64,000 nt of DNA from an uncultured Alphaproteobacteria bacterium. Lineage in GTDB: Bacteria; Pseudomonadota; Alphaproteobacteria; Rs-D84. The notes beneath the pieces were generated by a model, which was not told where the DNA came from, ran no database searches, and was given only the letters and a program-made list of their open reading frames with translations. Made by a program: the position numbers and the translations under genes. The stretch is from NCBI GenBank assembly GCA_947646585.1, contig CANSHD010000001.1, positions 248,617 through 312,616 of the forward strand, written 5' to 3'. Of the stretch, positions 3,547 to 39,651 are shown in pieces; position 1 is the stretch's first letter, and each line of letters begins with the position of its first letter.

Positions 3547-4595
3547 TCCGTAACGGTTTGGGTTTCCGTAACCTCGGTCACCTGGACCGGGGCCGGCGCC
3601 GTCACATTGTCCAGGTCGCGAATCAGACCCTGCAGACGTTCAACACTTTCCGTGTCGTTCAGTGCGGCCGCGATTGTCATCGACGATTCCAAATCGCTGC
3701 GCGCGGCGTCCATGTTGCCAATCTTTAAATTCAGCGCGGCGGACTTTTCAAAATAGCTCATCGCGCGTGACGACAGGGATTCGCGTTCGTCCGCGGACGT
3801 CGCACCCTGAATCTGTTCGGATATTACGCGAACGGCGCTACTGTAGTCATTGATTGCGGCGGCATAGCTGCCCAGTGCGGTCAACGCCTCGGCGCGTTCC
3901 GCATAAACGTTCGGCGATACCACGCCGTCCGGCAGTGCCAGCGAGTTTGTATAGTCGGCAATCGCCCCTTCCCAGTTTTTCAACCACAGGTTCAACTGGC
4001 CGCGGCGCGCATACAAGTCACGCATCTGCAGAACATTGTTCGGACGCGCGGTGCGTGCGGCCAGTGCGCTGTTGATGTCGTTCAATGCGGCCGTATAATT
4101 TTCCATGCGCGTGTTTACCAGCGCACGGTCGTAATATGCGATGGAGTTCTGGCTGTCTTTTTCCAGTGCGGCGTTAAAGTCGTCCATTGCCGCGGCATAG
4201 TTGCCGGCCTGCATATATGCCTCGCCACGCAGAACCAATGCGTCGATGTTGTCGTCGGCGGCCTCTACGGCGGCGGTCAAATCCGCAACCGCGGCGTCGA
4301 TATCGCCGGACAGCAATTTTGTTTTTCCGCTTTCATAATAATCGCCGGATTGCAACAAGGCCTCTTCCGTGATTTCGACATTGTTGTTTTCAGACGGTGT
4401 AATGCCGCCGTGGCTGCGTCCCAGAATATAGAACGTTGCCGCGATGAAAAACAGGATGATGAACCAGTAAATATAAATCGACAGCGACCACGCCGAGCCG
4501 GATTTCTTTTCAACAGGCGTTGCGCGAACCTGCGCTTTTGCCGGATTTGCAGCCTTTTTGGCGGGTGCAGTTTTCTTTGCAGGTGTTTTTTTCAT
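3543..4595 (-). CDS. membrane-anchored TPR-repeat protein
   Basis: Lys/Ala-rich N-terminus, one TM (IYIYWFIILFFIAATFYIL), then repeated A/Y/N-rich TPR-like units (AYMQAGNYAAA, AYYDRALVN..). Confidence 0.65.
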   Translation of the reverse strand: MKKTPAKKTAPAKKAANPAKAQVRATPVEKKSGSAWSLSIYIYWFIILFFIAATFYILGRSHGGITPSENNNVEITEEALLQSGDYYESGKTKLLSGDIDAAVADLTAAVEAADDNIDALVLRGEAYMQAGNYAAAMDDFNAALEKDSQNSIAYYDRALVNTRMENYTAALNDINSALAARTARPNNVLQMRDLYARRGQLNLWLKNWEGAIADYTNSLALPDGVVSPNVYAERAEALTALGSYAAAINDYSSAVRVISEQIQGATSADERESLSSRAMSYFEKSAALNLKIGNMDAARSDLESSMTIAAALNDTESVERLQGLIRDLDNVTAPAPVQVTEVTETQTVTE

Positions 4596-23140: not shown

Positions 23141-24133
23141 ATGAATTTTATGCCGATTTATCAAAAATATTTGGCGTGGCGCGACCGCCATTTCCCCATG
23201 GGGAACATACTGCGTCATACGCAGTATGTATTGGTGTTCAAAACAACAAATTATTGTTGGTACCGGTGCCCGCATTGCTGTGAATGTTCGGGGCCGAATA
23301 ATCCGCGGACATTTATTCCGGTCCGTACCATATGCTCTTATTTGGACCAGGCGCATGCCGACCCGTCATTTTCAAACAACGTTGTGTTTACAGGCGGGGA
23401 AATCATGTCGGCATACCGCTTTGGGCCGGCCGATTACGTGCCGACATTATTGAATCACAGTCTGGATTTGGGCATCGGTACGGATATAAAGACCAATGCC
23501 GCATGGGTGCGCGCCGGATTTGGCGAGGGGATATTTCAGGATTTGCATCACGTAATATCGTCACATAAACCGTATTCGTTGCAGATATCGCTGTCGCTGG
23601 ACAGGTATCATAAAAATGCGTTGGAAAACAACGCCGCGGTGATATCGCGCCTGGCCAAAATGCCAAACACAAACGCCATCGTCCATGTATCCGGATTTAA
23701 TAACCATGTTGACATGTTTCCGGCATTGTTGGAGCGGATTAAAGCAAACGGTCTGAAAATAGATGAGGTTTTATGCGGCTCTGCTGGAAAAATTTTACCG
23801 CGTGTCGGCGGCCGGATTTTGTTGCAGTATTCAAAGGGAACGCTGTTTGACGGCGGGCGTGCGCGCGACATGGAATGGGCGCATCATTCGGAATTTCCGC
23901 AGTTTCAGTTTTTAACCGCCGACGGCATGTCTTTGATTGCGTTTGACAGCGCGGGTCGTGTAACGCTTGGCGAAAATTCAGGCCGCAAAATATCGACATC
24001 TTTTTTGATGCGTAAGAATTTTAATGTATATCTGAAAAATTTGTATCATATTCGCGCCGATTTGGTTAAGGCCACATGGCGCGAGGAGACGCGCGCCCGC
24101 CTGCTGGATGGCTGGCGTTTTAACGAGCGATAA
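23141..24133 (+). CDS. radical SAM domain protein of unknown function (no SPASM/twitch Cys cluster)
   Basis: CxxxCxxC at TTNYCWYRCPHCC; glycine-rich SAM motif VVFTGGE; IKTNA motif; 330 aa. Confidence 0.7.
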   Translation: MNFMPIYQKYLAWRDRHFPMGNILRHTQYVLVFKTTNYCWYRCPHCCECSGPNNPRTFIPVRTICSYLDQAHADPSFSNNVVFTGGEIMSAYRFGPADYVPTLLNHSLDLGIGTDIKTNAAWVRAGFGEGIFQDLHHVISSHKPYSLQISLSLDRYHKNALENNAAVISRLAKMPNTNAIVHVSGFNNHVDMFPALLERIKANGLKIDEVLCGSAGKILPRVGGRILLQYSKGTLFDGGRARDMEWAHHSEFPQFQFLTADGMSLIAFDSAGRVTLGENSGRKISTSFLMRKNFNVYLKNLYHIRADLVKATWREETRARLLDGWRFNER

Positions 24134-26126: not shown

Positions 26127-26210
26127 CTGGATTGCCACGGTCGTTTCACTCCCTCGCAATGACAGCGAGCCTGGAACGATTGTCATTGCGAACGAAGTGA
26201 AGCAATCCAG
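26127..26210. repeat. MITE/REP-like nested palindromic element, copy A
   Basis: outer IR ctggattgc/gcaatccag; inner IR ctcgcaatgacag/ttgtcattgcga. Confidence 0.8.
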
Positions 26211-26237
26211 TAAATGATGAACATCGCCGCTTTATTC

Positions 26238-26341
26238 GGAATTGCCGCGTCGGCGTAATCGCCTCCTCGCAATGACAGTGGCGGGTAATGTTGCAATTTA
26301 TCTCCATTGTCATTGCGAGCCCCAACGGGGCGTGGCAATCC
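26238..26341. repeat. MITE/REP-like nested palindromic element, copy B (tandem to A)
   Basis: ggaattgcc..cctcgcaatgacag..ttgtcattgcgag..ggcaatcc. Confidence 0.8.
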
Positions 26342-26343
26342 AT

Positions 26344-26376
26344 AAAAAAGACCGGCATTTGCCGGCCTTTTTTATG
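26344..26376. terminator. bidirectional terminator downstream of parB
   Basis: aaaaaagaccggcatttgccggccttttttatg. Confidence 0.7.
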
Positions 26377-26379
26377 TTT

Positions 26380-27258
26380 TTATTTGCAGATTTTATCGAC
26401 GATTTCCTGCATTTGGGTGCGTGTTGAAAACGACAGCACAATCTGCCCCGCCCCGCCGCGTCGTTCGGTTATTTTCGCCGCCGTGCCCAGGGCGGATTTT
26501 ATGCGCGCCTCTATATCGCGGCGCATGTCCGCATCCATATTGTTTGATGAAAAAGCCCGGCTTTTCCCGGCGCGCGGCCCCTGCTTTACCATTGTGGCAA
26601 TCTGTGCCACCGGTATCTTTTCGTTCACGATTTTATGGGCCAGTTCTTCCTGATTCTCGGCCACGGCAATAGTACGCGCCGCCGACGCGGACAGTTCGCC
26701 CCGCTCCACCATCGCCTTTACGGAATCGGCCAGGTTTGTTAAACGCATTATGTTTCGGATATAGCTTTCCGATTTCCCAATCAGGCGCACGACGTCGGCC
26801 AAATCGTATCCGCATTTTTCCATTAAGTTCTGGTATGCGGCGGCCTCTTCCATCGGGTTTAAATTTTCACGCTGAACATTTTCAATCAATGCGATTTCCA
26901 TCGCGTTTTCATCGTTCAGTGTTTTTACCAACGCCGGAATTTCGGTCAGCCCCGCCAGCTTGCTGGCGCGATAGCGGCGCTCGCCCGCGACGATTTCGTA
27001 CATATGCGCACGTCCCGAAACGGCGCGCAATAAAATCGGCTGTAATACGCCCTTTTCCTTGATTGACGCGGCCAGCTCCTGTAACTCCGCATCGGTAAAT
27101 GTTTTACGCGGCTGGTCCGGGTTCGCACCGATTTGTGCCAACGGGATTTGTTTTACCACAACACGTTCGGCCCCGGTTAATATGGAAAAGTCCGGAACTT
27201 GTCCACGTTCTGATTGTAATTCGGCCCATCCTTTGCCAAGTCCAAATTTTGAAGACAT
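26380..27258 (-). CDS. parB: chromosome partitioning protein ParB
   Basis: ParB box IVAGERRYRASKLAG..IPALVKTLNDENAMEIALIENVQREN; 292 aa. Confidence 0.92.
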   Translation of the reverse strand: MSSKFGLGKGWAELQSERGQVPDFSILTGAERVVVKQIPLAQIGANPDQPRKTFTDAELQELAASIKEKGVLQPILLRAVSGRAHMYEIVAGERRYRASKLAGLTEIPALVKTLNDENAMEIALIENVQRENLNPMEEAAAYQNLMEKCGYDLADVVRLIGKSESYIRNIMRLTNLADSVKAMVERGELSASAARTIAVAENQEELAHKIVNEKIPVAQIATMVKQGPRAGKSRAFSSNNMDADMRRDIEARIKSALGTAAKITERRGGAGQIVLSFSTRTQMQEIVDKICK

Positions 27259-27261
27259 GCC

Positions 27262-28035
27262 CTATTCTCCTTGTTCTGTGCGTTCTACAACCTCGGTCGC
27301 GACACGCAGATACGCCTGGGCGCCGGGGGAATTAAAGTCATAAAACAATGCCGGTTTGCCGTGGCTGGGGGCCTCGGACACGCGGACATTGCGCGGGATT
27401 ACCGTCTTGAATGTTTTGTCGCCGAATGTGTTGCGGATTTCATCCTCTACCGCGCGCGTTAAACTCTGGCGGCGGTCGTACATTGTTAATAATACGCCCA
27501 GGATGTCGATATTCGGGTTTAATTCGCGGCGCACACCCTCGATTGTGTTAATTAATTGCTGAACACCTTCCAATGAATAAAATTCGCACTGCATCGGGAT
27601 GATAACGCCGTCGGCGGCCGCCAGTGCGTTTGCGGTAATGTTTCCCATCGCGGGCGGACAGTCCAGCAATATGTAATCATAATAATCGCGCACGGGCACC
27701 AATGCATCGCGCAGACGATAGAATCGGTTGTCTTCGGTGTACAGCTCAACCTCGGCCGCGGCCAGCTGTTGGGTCGACGGCATGATATGCAGATTCGGCA
27801 CCGCCGTTGTTAAAATATTGTCAGCGGCCGTCGCCGTGCCCTTTAACACGCCGTAGACGCTTTGGCGGTGTGACGAGCGCACAAACCCCAGACCTGTTCC
27901 GGCGTTGCCCTGTTGGTCCAAATCAATCAGCAGCACGCGCTTTTTAATCGCGGCCAGGGATGCACCGATATTTATCGCGGTTGTGGTTTTGCCCACGCCG
28001 CCTTTTTGGTTTGCAAATGCTATTATTTTTGTCAT
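27262..28035 (-). CDS. parA: chromosome partitioning ATPase ParA
   Basis: deviant Walker A FANQKGGVGKTTTAIN; 257 aa. Confidence 0.95.
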   Translation of the reverse strand: MTKIIAFANQKGGVGKTTTAINIGASLAAIKKRVLLIDLDQQGNAGTGLGFVRSSHRQSVYGVLKGTATAADNILTTAVPNLHIMPSTQQLAAAEVELYTEDNRFYRLRDALVPVRDYYDYILLDCPPAMGNITANALAAADGVIIPMQCEFYSLEGVQQLINTIEGVRRELNPNIDILGVLLTMYDRRQSLTRAVEDEIRNTFGDKTFKTVIPRNVRVSEAPSHGKPALFYDFNSPGAQAYLRVATEVVERTEQGE

Positions 28036-28152
28036 TCTTTTTCCCGATATTTACCGGCCTTTATGGTATAAAATCATGTCGTTTCAGTCAAGATATTTAA
28101 ATATAATAAGTTTTGTTGTTAAAAAATCGTTAAAAATCAATATATTGTTAAT

Positions 28153-28168
28153 AATTTCATGTGAAATA
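28153..28168. promoter_or_regulatory. parS-like site (imperfect) AATTTCATGTGAAATA, inside a 27-bp repeat upstream of parA
   Basis: core TTTCA(T/C)GTGAAA matches parS consensus tGTTTCACGTGAAACa core. Confidence 0.5.
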
Positions 28169-28244
28169 ATACGTTTTGTCGATTTTTTGACAAATGGTAC
28201 GTTCTGTGTTATAATATATAATCTGTGTAATATGGAGGGTAATT

Positions 28245-29231
28245 GTGAAGTTTAAGAAATTACTTACTTTGTCTGCAGGCTTAAGCGTGCTGCTGGGCAC
28301 GTCTATCGGCTGTGCGGTATGGGGGGGGGCGTCTGATAATAAAACGCCAGACAAGGCGGTTAAAACGATTCGTTTTAAGCCATTGCCTGATTTGAAAACC
28401 GCAACTGACACTTTATATTTTACAAACGAAAATTTTGATGCGAAATACGCGCATGCCGCGGCGGGGCAGTTTATACCGGGTACGAACACCGTTCGTGTCT
28501 CGTATTTTATGTATGACGACACGGCCAATGCGCGCGTGCGTTTAAATTGTGACAACGCGAATGAATCGGTTGAGGTTGTTCGTCGTCACGAGATGGAGCA
28601 TGCGCGCAAGGCGAATGTCGTTCAGGATGTGATGGGATTGTCGCCGTGGGACCGGGCACGCCTGGCGGTTATGAATGAATCCATGGCGCCCGGCGGCGAG
28701 ATTATCGAGGCGGTGGAGTATCATATCAAAACCGGCGAGCGTTATCCGCAGAACCGCGCGTTTCTGTGGCACGCCGACAGTTTGATTATGGCGCGTCACA
28801 ATGAAAAGAATTTCGGGTTCGGTGACGGTGTTCCGGTTGATTTTTCGGACCCTGTTATCGCCGATATTGTTTTGGAAAGCGCTGTCGATAAATTTGCCAG
28901 GGATCACAAGCGCGGTTTTTATCACACAAAAATAAGGAGTGAATTAAAAGGGGTTAAACGTTCGAAATACAAGCCGCACAATCAGTGTGATTTAAAGCCG
29001 AATATGTCGAACTATTTTCCGATGGCGAATCAGTGGGGGATATTGTGGACATATGATGTCACTTCTCCGTGGACGATTTTGAAAAAGAGACAGGTTGATG
29101 TTTGGAATTGTGCCAGTGAAACAACGCGCCGCCGCGTGATAAACAAGGTTGATTCGATTGTGAAAACGGATATGGCTGCCGGCCAAATGTTAATGTTGAA
29201 AACTTTTAAATATCCGCACTCAAATCAATAA
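28245..29231 (+). CDS. lipoprotein / secreted protein with HExxH zinc-metallopeptidase motif (RRHEMEHAR), unknown family
   Basis: signal peptide with Cys (LLGTSIGC); HEMEH; AT-rich own promoter (gttataatatataat); flanked by 27-bp direct repeats. Confidence 0.6.
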   Translation: MKFKKLLTLSAGLSVLLGTSIGCAVWGGASDNKTPDKAVKTIRFKPLPDLKTATDTLYFTNENFDAKYAHAAAGQFIPGTNTVRVSYFMYDDTANARVRLNCDNANESVEVVRRHEMEHARKANVVQDVMGLSPWDRARLAVMNESMAPGGEIIEAVEYHIKTGERYPQNRAFLWHADSLIMARHNEKNFGFGDGVPVDFSDPVIADIVLESAVDKFARDHKRGFYHTKIRSELKGVKRSKYKPHNQCDLKPNMSNYFPMANQWGILWTYDVTSPWTILKKRQVDVWNCASETTRRRVINKVDSIVKTDMAAGQMLMLKTFKYPHSNQ

Positions 29232-29240
29232 ATTGTTAAT

Positions 29241-29256
29241 AATTTCACGTGAAATT
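29241..29256. promoter_or_regulatory. parS-like perfect 16-bp palindrome AATTTCACGTGAAATT at rsmG 3' end
   Basis: 12-bp core identical to parS core TTTCACGTGAAA; overlaps the rsmG stop codon. Confidence 0.55.
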
Positions 29257-29815
29257 ACCGGTGTTTTTCGATAATTATAATATTGCCGTCGCCGGTCTTG
29301 GATGGAACAAGTCTGTAATCGAATTTATATTTTGTTTTAGCGGTGGCGACCTCGCTCTCAATCTCCCGGCCTTTTAATAAAAAAAGCCGGCATTTTGTTC
29401 GGGCGACATAATCCAAAATCTTTATCAGCGGTGCAAACGCGCGCGCCGTAAATACGGTTGTGTCGGGATTTACCGGTGTTTTTTTAATAAAATCTTCGAC
29501 GCGGCCGTGATAAACGGTTAAATTGTCCAGTTTCAGCTGTTCTTTTACCTCTGTTAAAAAGGCGGTTTTTTTGCCAATGGATTCAATGCATGTCACGTTA
29601 AAGCCAAGTATTGCCAGAACGACGCCCGGGAATCCGGCCCCGCTGCCCAAATCTATTACGTTTACGCCCGCGGGTAAAATGTCGGCCAGCTGGGCGCTGT
29701 CGGCAAAGTGGCGGTTTTCTATGTCGGCCAGTGTGCTGGGGGCGACCAGATTCATTTTTTTTGACCATTCGCGCAACAGGCGCCCGTACAATTCAAATTT
29801 GTCTTTATTATTCAT
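29255..29815 (-). CDS. rsmG: 16S rRNA (guanine527-N7)-methyltransferase RsmG (GidB)
   Basis: SAM motif VIDLGSGAGFPGVVLAI; 186 aa; rsmG-parA-parB order. Confidence 0.85.
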   Translation of the reverse strand: MNNKDKFELYGRLLREWSKKMNLVAPSTLADIENRHFADSAQLADILPAGVNVIDLGSGAGFPGVVLAILGFNVTCIESIGKKTAFLTEVKEQLKLDNLTVYHGRVEDFIKKTPVNPDTTVFTARAFAPLIKILDYVARTKCRLFLLKGREIESEVATAKTKYKFDYRLVPSKTGDGNIIIIEKHR

Positions 29816-29841
29816 AAGGAATATTGTAGCATAAACTTGTC

Positions 29842-31458
29842 ATGAGAAAAACAGAAACTTTATTTATAGGTGCGGGCCTGGTCGCCGCGTTGGTTGTGTC
29901 GGGTGTTGTCGCGTGGCGTGCGTTTACGCCCGCGTCCGACGATGCGTCGCATCAGTATCCGACCACAAAATACGGCGCTTTTTTGGCGGCCCAGCATGCG
30001 ATTTATATCAATGATTTTGAACGTGCGGCCGAATTCGGGCGCACGCTGGACAATATCGAATACGCCGTTGTGTATAACACGCGGATGCTGTCCGAATTTT
30101 TAAGCGGTCGCCTGCCCGGCGACGCAAAATTGATGCGTGATGAAAAGAACGCCGCCGCGCGCATGATTTATGACGCCTATCTGGTCGACCAGGGTCATTG
30201 GGACGAACTGTACAAACGTCATAAAAAAGACACATCCGCGCTGTCGGCGCCGTTGCGCATATGGTCGTCGGTTGCGACAAAGCACAGCGGGGATGCGATA
30301 AAGTTCATTTCGAAACTGCCGACAAACGAATCATGGAAGGCGTTCACACGCGGCCAGATTTATGCCCAGGCGGGCGATGTCGCCGCGGCCGAGAAAGAGT
30401 TTGCGGCCGTTTCCGCGGACTTTATGAATATCAACGACTATCTGTATGTAATGTCGTTTTACCGCGCCAATGACTTGAACGGCGCGGCGGCAAAACTGCG
30501 CGAAGATTTTACCTCCAAACCCGGCGGGATGTACATGCTGGGCTATGACACGGTGCCGGATTGGTCCGTGTATGCGGGGAATAAAAACGCGCTGGCGTTC
30601 AGTCTGATTCAAAATGTATCGCATACCCAGATTATGATGTATTCGGATTTGTCGCTGCTGCTGTTGCGTTTCGCTCAGATAACGGGTTCCGATTTTGCGG
30701 CGAACAACGATGCGATAAACTATTACCTGGGCCAGTATTTTTATAACAATGCCGGCGATTGCGGGAAATACTTCGGCGCAATATCACAGAACAGTCCGTT
30801 CTATCTGTTCGGGGTTCTGCGCATGGCGGACAAGACGAATGATTTTGCAGCGCTTTCCGCCGCGATGGAGGCCTCGCCCCTGTTCGTGCCGGGCGCCACG
30901 CGGCTAATTGCGCATTATGTCGCCAATGGCGACCGTCGCGCCGCTTTGCGCGTTGTGGAACGGGCGCTGGCCGATGACAATATTACGCCGCAGGGGCGCG
31001 GATACTTTTTAAAGAGCAGGGCGCAAATCAATTTTGCATTCGGCGATTTGGACGCGGCGCAGAGTGATATTCGCGCGGCCTCGGACGAGCTGCCTATTGA
31101 CGGCGAAATTTTGGCGCTGCAGTCCAAGATATGGGCGATGCAGAACCGAGAGCTGGAAAATGCGTACGAATATGCGATGGGATTGGTTCGCCAGAATCCG
31201 ACGGATGTTTTTGCGTGGGACGTTCTGGGGCGTGTCGTCGCCGTTCGTGAAAGCGACGATGCCGCGTTGGAGTTGATAGAGCGTGTCGGCGAGGTTTCCA
31301 ACAGCTGCTCTTCATTGTTCGAACAGCTGGGCGATTTATATGCCACGCGCGGTGATGCCAAGCGTGCGCGCGACGCGTATTTGCGTGCGATTGAATTGGC
31401 CGATGACGGGTTGGTTGTCATACCGTTGGTTGAAAAGAAGATAAGGAAATTAAAATGA
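29842..31458 (+). CDS. membrane-anchored TPR-repeat protein
   Basis: N-terminal TM LFIGAGLVAALVVSGVVAW; multiple TPR-like A/Y/L repeats (..YAQAGDVAAAEKEF.., ..LGDLYATRGDAKRARDAYLRAIEL..). Confidence 0.6.
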   Translation: MRKTETLFIGAGLVAALVVSGVVAWRAFTPASDDASHQYPTTKYGAFLAAQHAIYINDFERAAEFGRTLDNIEYAVVYNTRMLSEFLSGRLPGDAKLMRDEKNAAARMIYDAYLVDQGHWDELYKRHKKDTSALSAPLRIWSSVATKHSGDAIKFISKLPTNESWKAFTRGQIYAQAGDVAAAEKEFAAVSADFMNINDYLYVMSFYRANDLNGAAAKLREDFTSKPGGMYMLGYDTVPDWSVYAGNKNALAFSLIQNVSHTQIMMYSDLSLLLLRFAQITGSDFAANNDAINYYLGQYFYNNAGDCGKYFGAISQNSPFYLFGVLRMADKTNDFAALSAAMEASPLFVPGATRLIAHYVANGDRRAALRVVERALADDNITPQGRGYFLKSRAQINFAFGDLDAAQSDIRAASDELPIDGEILALQSKIWAMQNRELENAYEYAMGLVRQNPTDVFAWDVLGRVVAVRESDDAALELIERVGEVSNSCSSLFEQLGDLYATRGDAKRARDAYLRAIELADDGLVVIPLVEKKIRKLK

Positions 31459-39548: not shown

Positions 39549-39651
39549 CTGGATTGCTTCGGCATTCGCCTCGCAATGACAAAGGCGCGGAATGTTGCGC
39601 TTCATCACTCTTGTCATTGCGAGGAGGGCATAGCCCGACGTGGCAATCCAG
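39549..39651. repeat. MITE/REP-like nested palindromic element, copy C
   Basis: ctggattgc..cctcgcaatgaca..ttgtcattgcgagg..ggcaatccag; same family as 26127-26341. Confidence 0.8.

Follow-up and report, generated by a model that had tools for sequence, protein, structure and literature searches.

In plasmid P1, the integration host factor (IHF) bends the centromere parS and raises the affinity of ParB for it, and the IHF site is central there, with box A and box B motifs on the arms to either side of it that the P1 ParB recognises. Caulobacter has its two strongest parS sites at most 260 bp apart, and its ParB spreads over about 2 kb per site (PMC5815017). According to Jalal et al. 2020 (PMC7383237), R173 of ParB makes a hydrogen bond with guanine 1 of parS, and deep mutational work reports both R173 and G201 to be absolutely conserved in ParB orthologs (PMC7383237); in Noc, the loss of R173 accompanies adenine at position 1 of the site (PMC7383237). 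With these systems we compare a 64-kb stretch of DNA (the window) from a host that we assign to the uncultured gut alphaproteobacteria related to 'Candidatus Enterousia', in which two direct repeats flank a gene, here called X, between parA and rsmG. The repeats are quite probably two copies of a composite centromere module, made of an IHF-type element and a variant parS site with the consensus RTTTCAYRTGAAAY, that would serve the adjacent parAB genes. A parS site beside parAB is of a known kind; what sets this locus apart is a clade-wide variant of ParB and parS, a testable rule of covariation between the two, and the fusion of parS with an IHF-type element.

The left copy of the repeat lies at 28134-28170 and the right copy at 29222-29258, both on the plus strand. 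From a repeat search and a direct reading of positions 27000-30600, each copy is found to span 37 nt, consisting of the IHF-like element and the parS-like site, and the two copies are identical at 34 of the 37 nt (92%). The flanking direct repeats described in an earlier reading of this DNA (the sequence-only reading) are real, and longer than it had claimed. The right copy contains a perfect 18-bp palindrome, TAATTTCACGTGAAATTA, at 29240-29257, and its central 12 bases, TTTCACGTGAAA, are the parS core. Within it lies the right parS-like 16-mer AATTTCACGTGAAATT (29241-29256, plus strand), a perfect palindrome that shares bases with the stop codon of rsmG (TTA, 29255-29257, which is TAA on the minus strand), as the same reading had noticed. 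The left parS-like 16-mer AATTTCATGTGAAATA (28153-28168, plus strand) is situated between the divergent promoters of parA and X, and it is an imperfect palindrome.

When at most one mismatch is allowed, the 12-mer TTTCACGTGAAA has only two matches in the 64 kb, and they are the two repeat palindromes; 0.26 matches are expected by chance, and two were reached in 5 of 100 shuffles. The canonical parS 16-mer TGTTNCACGTGAAACA has no match within three mismatches in the window, because the right site agrees with it at only 12 of 16 positions and the left site at only 10 of 16. Measured from the parA start, both sites fall within 1.3 kb, and the 64 kb contain no third one. The sites are few and adjoin parAB, as expected of chromosomal parS, which occurs in few copies beside parAB in the region near the origin. 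The 16-mers AATTTCACGTGAAATT and TATTTCATGTGAAATA are predicted targets of ParB.

A metagenome scan with the neighbouring TPR protein yielded 80 further loci, down to 43% TPR identity, and the whole sample comprises 93 loci of about 10 kb each with 139 distinct sites, which were collected by means of the core. The palindromes are kept at corresponding places in all 93 loci, they grade into canonical parS, and they vary together with a residue of ParB, all of which speaks for the earlier proposal that they would be ParB sites of the adjacent parAB. In the clade consensus RTTTCAYRTGAAAY, taken over the 139 distinct sites, position 1 is always a purine (A in 105, or 76%, and G in 34), and at the mirror position T stands in 112 sites and C in the other 27, never a base of the other class. 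The arms TTTCA and TGAAA are held, and the centre varies among CACGTG, CATGTG, CATATG and CACATG. A lineage from pig gut (L023) has two fully canonical parS cores, together with a ParB carrying V173 and K177; its left site, TGTTTCACGTGAAACA, is an exact canonical parS (16/16), and the orthologous site of another lineage (L002) matches at 14 of 16 positions. The exact match in L023 ties the variant sites to parS by descent.

Each parS-like site in the window is accompanied by a second element. On the left, a consensus scan finds AATCAATATATTG (28135-28147, plus strand), an exact match to the IHF consensus WATCAANNNNTTR; on the right, AATCAATAAATTG (29223-29235, plus strand) is also an exact match and overlaps the end of the X reading frame (its three final codons and the stop). 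There are three exact matches to WATCAANNNNTTR in the 64 kb, and two of them are these elements flanking the parS-like sites. The IHF-like element is found 5 bp before the 16-mer, at a fixed spacing and on one side, in every site of the sample. To describe it, the 139 sites are aligned gap-free on the palindrome and numbered from the first T of the core, so that the 16-mer starts at -2. Counted over the 139 sites, the upstream part then reads W (A or T) in 136 at -20, A in 96 at -19, T in 91 at -18, C in 137 at -17, A in 138 at -16 and A in 122 at -15, and the downstream part T in 99 at -10, T in 139 at -9 and R (a purine) in 139 at -8; positions -14 to -11 and -7 to -4 carry about 0.1-0.8 bit each. 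The conserved positions are those of the IHF consensus WATCAANNNNTTR together with an A-rich tract upstream, and at every defined position the consensus base is the commonest one among the 139 sites, with four positions conserved at 99% or more.

From this match we infer that IHF may bind and bend the DNA next to ParB, and it is a matter of speculation that the element might bend the DNA on one side only or block ParB clamps as they slide. The arrangement is like that of plasmid P1 in combining a ParB centromere with an IHF consensus, seen here in the sequence alone. It differs from P1 parS in that the palindrome is of the 16-bp chromosomal type and the IHF-like element stands on one side of it, 5 bp away. 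A literature search, judged by titles, returned no chromosomal centromere composed of ParB and IHF sites.

We turn our attention to the protein that would read these sites. The gene parB (26380-27258, minus strand) encodes a chromosomal-type ParB with a non-canonical recognition helix. Its translation contains the motif GERRYRA and matches the Pfam families ParB_N, HTH_ParB and ParB_C (9e-35, 1e-23 and 3.5e-05, respectively), the ParB_C match of 23.6 bits being just below the curated cut-off of 23.8. Across the DNA-binding region it aligns gap-free to the Caulobacter ParB (6t1f). In Caulobacter numbering, the canonical R173 is E in the window ParB, A177 is R, T179 is I, A184 is N and G201 is S. 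The five solved ParBs compared all have R173, A177 and G201. None of the 120 ParB homologs closest to the window protein (identity of 70% or more) has R173, and E, D, A, V or Q stands in its place. Residue 177 is R or K, and residue 201 is S, in nearly all of them; the basal lineages with a single module, which are described below, share this pattern at 173, 177 and 201. A definition of canonical ParB by R173 plus G201 would leave out the window protein, which has E173 and S201.

Residue 177 and the first base of the site change together. The half-sites of genomes with K177 are G-type in 20 of 30 cases, against 38 of 236 in genomes with R177 (Fisher p = 2e-8, kinship ignored), and K177 arose in five or more separate parts of the tree. 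No association with the position-1 base is seen for residue 173 (E, D or A). Of the evidence at hand, the covariation between residue 177 and base 1 speaks most strongly for a reading of the palindromes by the adjacent ParB, and we infer that residue 177 may contact base 1.

These features allow the locus to be placed beside the two chromosomal systems. It is like the ParABS system of Caulobacter crescentus (parS 3 and 4 next to parAB, with CTP-dependent ParB clamps) in that 16-bp palindromes with TTTCACGTGAAA at their core stand close together beside parAB, in the close pairing of sites (within 260 bp there and 60-190 bp in X-less relatives here), and in the domain set of ParB with its GERRxRA motif. 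It differs in having A at position 1 in 76% of the sites where the canonical base is G, a ParB without R173 and G201 but with R or K at 177, an IHF-consensus element on one side of every site and, in the window genome, a 1-kb gene between the sites that is predicted to be expressed. The Noc protein of Bacillota and its Noc-binding sequence (NBS, tATTTCCCGGGAAATa) offer a likeness of another kind, in the outer bases of the sites (tATTTCA...TGAAATa) and in the joint occurrence of R173 loss and position-1 adenine in the ParB proteins and sites of this clade. The inner bases, however, are CAYRTG here, as in parS, and CCCGGG in NBS; the protein here is a ParB encoded with parA; it has E, D or A at 173 and S at 201, where Noc has Q173 and R201, and the permissive K179 and K184 are mostly absent; and the sites here are one or two beside parAB, whereas those of NBS are scattered. 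A Noc-NBS system (site ATTTCCCGGGAAAT; Q173, K179/K184, R201) does not fit the CAYRTG inner bases, E/D/A173 and S201.

If established ParB biology applies to this locus, ParB dimers would nucleate on each palindrome and close as clamps that depend on cytidine triphosphate. The clamps would slide over the flanking few kb, that is, over the parA promoter, gene X and the 3' end of rsmG, and this spreading would form the partition complex that is moved by ParA. In this clade the recognition would be carried out by a ParB without the guanine-reading R173 and without G201, with R or K at 177, on sites that accept A or G. ParB at the left site may in addition modulate the divergent promoters of parA and X, which is compatible with a centromere.

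The history of the locus can be read from a neighbor-joining, midpoint-rooted tree of 69 non-redundant lineages, built from ParA, ParB, RsmG and the TPR protein (1309 columns). The basal clades have one module in an rsmG-parA spacer of 118-141 bp, and this single module adjoins the 3' end of rsmG. Three intermediate clades have two modules, 60-190 bp apart from start to start, and no X. The X-bearing clade is nested within these two-module clades, and X-less members are in turn nested inside the X-bearing clade (for example, L034 beside L005 and L016). Since two-module clades without X are found outside the X clade, the duplication of the site would predate X, which would have landed between existing sites. 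This is the first of two alternatives that the sequence-only reading had put forward, a gene landing between two ancestral parS sites, and it is the one that the X-less two-site lineages favour. The polarity of the series leans on the general rule that the adjacency of rsmG, parA and parB is ancestral in bacteria.

Given midpoint rooting, the tree shows a single gain of X, which was later lost several times, decayed once and was duplicated once, with both modules kept. In four X-less lineages that came to light through the gene neighbourhoods of clade ParBs (L020, L021, L022 and L025), rsmG and parA are 175-240 bp apart and the two sites 85-118 bp apart. The decay is seen in the pig-gut lineage L023 (3469-4201), where a pseudogene of X retains only residues 1-83 and 256-318 and the HExxH region is deleted. 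The duplication is seen in a metagenome-assembled genome from roe-deer colon (L013, 6001-7868), with two tandem paralogs of X, 315 and 304 amino acids long and both carrying RHExEHA, between the modules. Relatives with the gene and without the repeats would have refuted the sequence-only reading; the opposite is found, as relatives have the two together and the repeats are kept even where X is gone. X is most likely an old and dispensable resident, whose position inside the putative centromere is historical and not required for partition. Two of the X-less lineages, L020 (about 4030-4060) and L022 (about 4020-4050), also have a GC-rich, terminator-like hairpin between the modules, such as AAAAGACCGGCACATACCGGTCTTTTTT, which has no counterpart at this position in X-bearing genomes.

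The two modules of one genome also resemble each other beyond what is constrained. Over 17 unconstrained columns, the identity between left and right modules is 0.56 within a genome and 0.45 between genomes (permutation p = 0.0026). The highest values within a genome are those of the window lineage (0.82) and L013 (0.76), and orthologous copies of the window and L002, the ParA proteins of which are 95% identical, reach 0.41-0.47. The greater similarity within genomes than between them indicates gene conversion between the modules. The identity of 34 of 37 nt in the window is better explained by about 24 constrained positions together with a spacer that gene conversion would have homogenised.

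A different account of that identity would make the repeats the attL/attR sites of a mobile cassette by which X was recently brought in, or a long target duplication made by it, the likeness to parS being incidental or the result of a single parS having been duplicated. The 1.1-kb segment has its own perfect promoter, runs opposite to rsmG-parA-parB and is bounded by 37-nt repeats with 92% identity; in GC content, X lies about 2.2 standard deviations below the window mean; and X belongs to an orphan family that is present or absent among relatives. The position of X nevertheless stays the same in relatives where its own identity has fallen to 31%, and ParA, ParB and RsmG have diverged in step. 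The gene order parB-parA / X / rsmG / TPR-gpsA-xseB-mutS is common to X homologs at 75%, 58%, 41% and 31% identity, and it is repeated in 12 GTDB species genomes labelled Alphaproteobacteria, Rickettsiales or 'Candidatus Enterousia', which have 74-98% (ParA), 65-95% (ParB) and 71-99% (RsmG) identity to the window, with X down to 31%. In the wider sample ParA identity goes down to 66%, compared with 74-98% in the first 26 loci. The 80 further loci all have the TPR gene, with rsmG, parA and parB following in the same order where the contig reaches, and X is present in 15 of them. In the first 16 genomes the same two site positions are filled, namely the spacer between parA and X and the stop codon of rsmG. 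That X holds its position at 31% identity while its neighbours stay similar means that it is vertically inherited and fast-evolving. Integrases and transposases are absent from every locus examined. The low GC content of X (47.5%, and 53% at third codon positions, GC3) equals that of the neighbouring rsmG (46% and 52%), and the proposal that X is foreign by composition is hence rejected. X-less lineages keep both modules, and those with two modules also occur outside the X clade; the absences of X are nested in the clade, with the pseudogene of L023 as an intermediate. We consider a recent cassette very improbable, and the inserted or foreign cassette implied by the sequence-only reading is not borne out and is mostly mistaken as to timescale, given that X is syntenic wherever it is present, to 31% identity, and that its one compositional or mobile-element signature is the low GC content it has in common with rsmG.

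It is also conceivable that the palindromes are operators rather than centromeres, bound by a transcription factor other than ParB, or by a ParB that acts mainly as a repressor, and that they control the promoters of parA and X. The left module does lie between these two promoters, and KorB, a member of the ParB family that is among the PDB matches for the window ParB, acts as a repressor. The right module, however, is at convergent 3' ends with no promoter nearby and is equally conserved, and the single module of the basal lineages adjoins the 3' end of rsmG. The gradation of the sites into canonical parS and their covariation with residue 177 of ParB also argue against operators, and no regulator gene is conserved in the locus, which makes this account improbable. 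For the right palindrome taken by itself, a bidirectional intrinsic terminator between X and rsmG might be imagined, the left copy being a relic, as an 18-bp perfect palindrome between convergent stops is followed by the T-rich run GGTGTTTTTC. But the RNA hairpin is predicted to be weak and does not outdo shuffles (plus strand, -4.7 kcal/mol, z = +0.66; minus strand, z = -0.81), its stem is all A-U except for one C-G pair, and the terminator scan makes no call there. The T-run is rsmG coding sequence, and X-less relatives have a separate GC-rich hairpin between the sites. What is selected is the base sequence and not the pairing, with a centre that varies without compensatory change being needed. 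A terminator is a scarcely credible explanation of the repeats.

Several observations weigh against composite centromere modules, which we nevertheless prefer. The organisms are uncultured, and it is the comparison of sequences that points to binding by ParB. The G/C pair read by canonical ParB at position 1 is absent from the window sites, which match canonical parS at only 10 and 12 of 16 positions. The covariation of K177 with G is imperfect, as two lineages (L024 and L057) each have only one G-type half-site in four, and kinship is ignored in the comparison. No gene for IHF or HU is found with E. coli queries in the window or in the loci of about 1 Mb, which cover a small fraction of each genome. 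The scan for sites covers 64 kb here and about 10 kb per relative, and copies of parS may exist elsewhere. The order of events depends on a neighbor-joining, midpoint-rooted tree without outgroup or support values; the ParB homologs listed by the search were all in-clade proteins at 70% identity or more, and hence it gave no outgroup.

Gene X (28245-29231, plus strand) encodes an orphan protein of 328 amino acids with a signal-peptide-like N-terminus, a putative zinc peptidase of the gluzincin type. The open reading frame carrying RRHEMEH is genuine, as had been said, with a GTG start and the ribosome-binding site GGAGG at 28234-28238. The claim of an AT-rich 1.1-kb segment is right for the 209-bp spacer between parA and X (25% GC) and wrong for the open reading frame itself, the GC content of which is like that of rsmG. 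In the window lineage the ancestral stop codon of X is mutated and three extra codons (SNQ) are added at 29223-29231. As a result, the reading frame runs into the IHF-like element of the right module, and hence the repeat seems to include coding sequence. The N-terminal MKFKK and the hydrophobic stretch after it are conserved. Set against the lipobox consensus [LVI][ASTVI][GAS]C, the SIGC of X is weak, with a poor residue at -3, and its Cys is replaced in homologs by Y, G, S, F and L, among others; as this Cys is not conserved, the label of lipoprotein given earlier is unsupported.

Homologs of X number 23 in an index of 5.8 billion proteins and 66 cluster representatives among 1.84 billion proteins, and all are about 300-330 amino acids long with no Pfam domain. 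In their alignment RHExEHA, E145, E152, E155, Y159 and D178 are invariant and C102 and C248 nearly so; distant homologs keep HExxHA and, about 25 residues on, (D/N)E-x-SA. The invariant (N/D)E145 of X itself is 26 residues after HExxH. Searches of X against Pfam and against PDB sequences and profiles, including permissive Pfam thresholds, gave nothing usable, and at permissive thresholds two family members graze Peptidase_M48 at a non-significant E = 0.06. The peptidase-family search suggested earlier leaves X, in other words, with no significant match to any described family in Pfam or PDB. An AlphaFold2 model (predicted local distance difference test, pLDDT, 84.8; predicted template modelling score, pTM, 0.80) begins its core with a sheet of three strands and a helix, after which come the HExxH helix and a long helix with (N/D)E145; this is the order expected of a gluzincin core, and no fold match is found for the model in PDB. 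In the model X is like the gluzincins (HExxH plus a downstream Glu; M1, M4, M48), having HExxH on one helix and (N/D)E, a candidate third ligand, on the next; it differs from them in that neither its sequence nor its fold significantly matches a described family and in being confined to this bacterial clade. X is best taken as a clade-restricted orphan that is probably exported and zinc-peptidase-like, and the chances that it functions as a zinc peptidase appear about even.

The remaining features of the locus are as follows. The partition ATPase gene parA (27262-28035, minus strand; Walker type; Pfam AAA_31, CbiA and ParA) lies between parB and X, and the 16S rRNA methyltransferase gene rsmG (gidB; 29255-29815, minus strand; Pfam GidB, 4e-38) is convergent with X. 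A consensus scan finds a parAB promoter-like site, TTGACT-17-TACCAT, at 28063-28091 on the minus strand (9 of 12 matches), the CTTGAC block of which is kept in all relatives. Gene X has a promoter of its own, as the sequence-only reading held: TTGACA-17-TATAAT with an extended TG at 28187-28215 on the plus strand, which matches the consensus at 12 of 12 positions and is kept in X-bearing relatives. The left module is about 20 bp upstream of the -35 hexamer of X and about 60 bp from that of parA. A CtrA box (TTAA-N7-TTAA) at 28119-28133, to the left of the left IHF-like element and between the promoters of parA and X, was considered and rejected, as the motif is not above chance (2 in the window against 1.2 expected) and this copy is only partly kept in relatives. 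An Rfam scan of the window finds three tRNAs only and no structured RNA at the repeats.

Some further observations concern the surroundings of the locus. A near-perfect inverted repeat, CATAAAAAAGACCGGCA/TGCCGGCCTTTTTTATG, at 26341-26376, directly 3' of parB, resembles a bidirectional intrinsic terminator. Palindromic elements like the repetitive extragenic palindromic (REP) type, CTCGCAATGACA...TGTCATTGCGAG, occur between genes at 26128-26342 and 39570-39623, with 6 copies of the arms where chance predicts 0.46. Shuffled sequences fold far less well than the pal-parB spacer does (z = -8.7), and the length of this spacer differs between L005 and L006. A radical-SAM-like open reading frame is located near the par locus at differing positions, at 23141-24133 in the window (upstream of infC) and at 5983-6984 in L020 (adjoining parB), which indicates local rearrangement around the centromere region. 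The cumulative GC skew has a local minimum at about 28 kb (27900-28200), where the genes switch from the minus to the plus strand; owing to this coincidence, the minimum is not readable as a replication origin without the whole genome. As for oriC, no DnaA-box-like sequence was noticed by eye, no dedicated DnaA-box search having been run.

A wider picture can be drawn, which we regard as tentative and on the whole unlikely to hold in full. In it, a whole clade of gut alphaproteobacteria would have a re-specified centromere, with the supposedly universal contact of R173 with guanine 1 abandoned, residue 177 reading position 1 in its stead (R favouring A and K favouring G), IHF acting at a set distance from every parS as on plasmid P1, and a captured, strongly expressed gene for a secreted protease perhaps tuned by the ParB complex. 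ParB-parS is the main chromosome-segregation system of bacteria, and its recognition of DNA has been treated as nearly invariant. A clade in which ParB has neither of the two conserved residues and parS is shifted towards A/T would, if true, be a natural experiment in how an interface drifts with its function kept. The covariation of residue 177 with base 1 is a directly testable rule of specificity, and new orthogonal ParB/parS pairs for DNA-labelling tools might follow if it is true. An IHF-type element joined to each chromosomal parS would extend the architecture of plasmid P1. X represents an undescribed family of HExxH proteins restricted to gut-associated bacteria, and the passage from a single module to a pair, and then to the capture of a gene, suggests how a centromere region can grow and come to host cargo.

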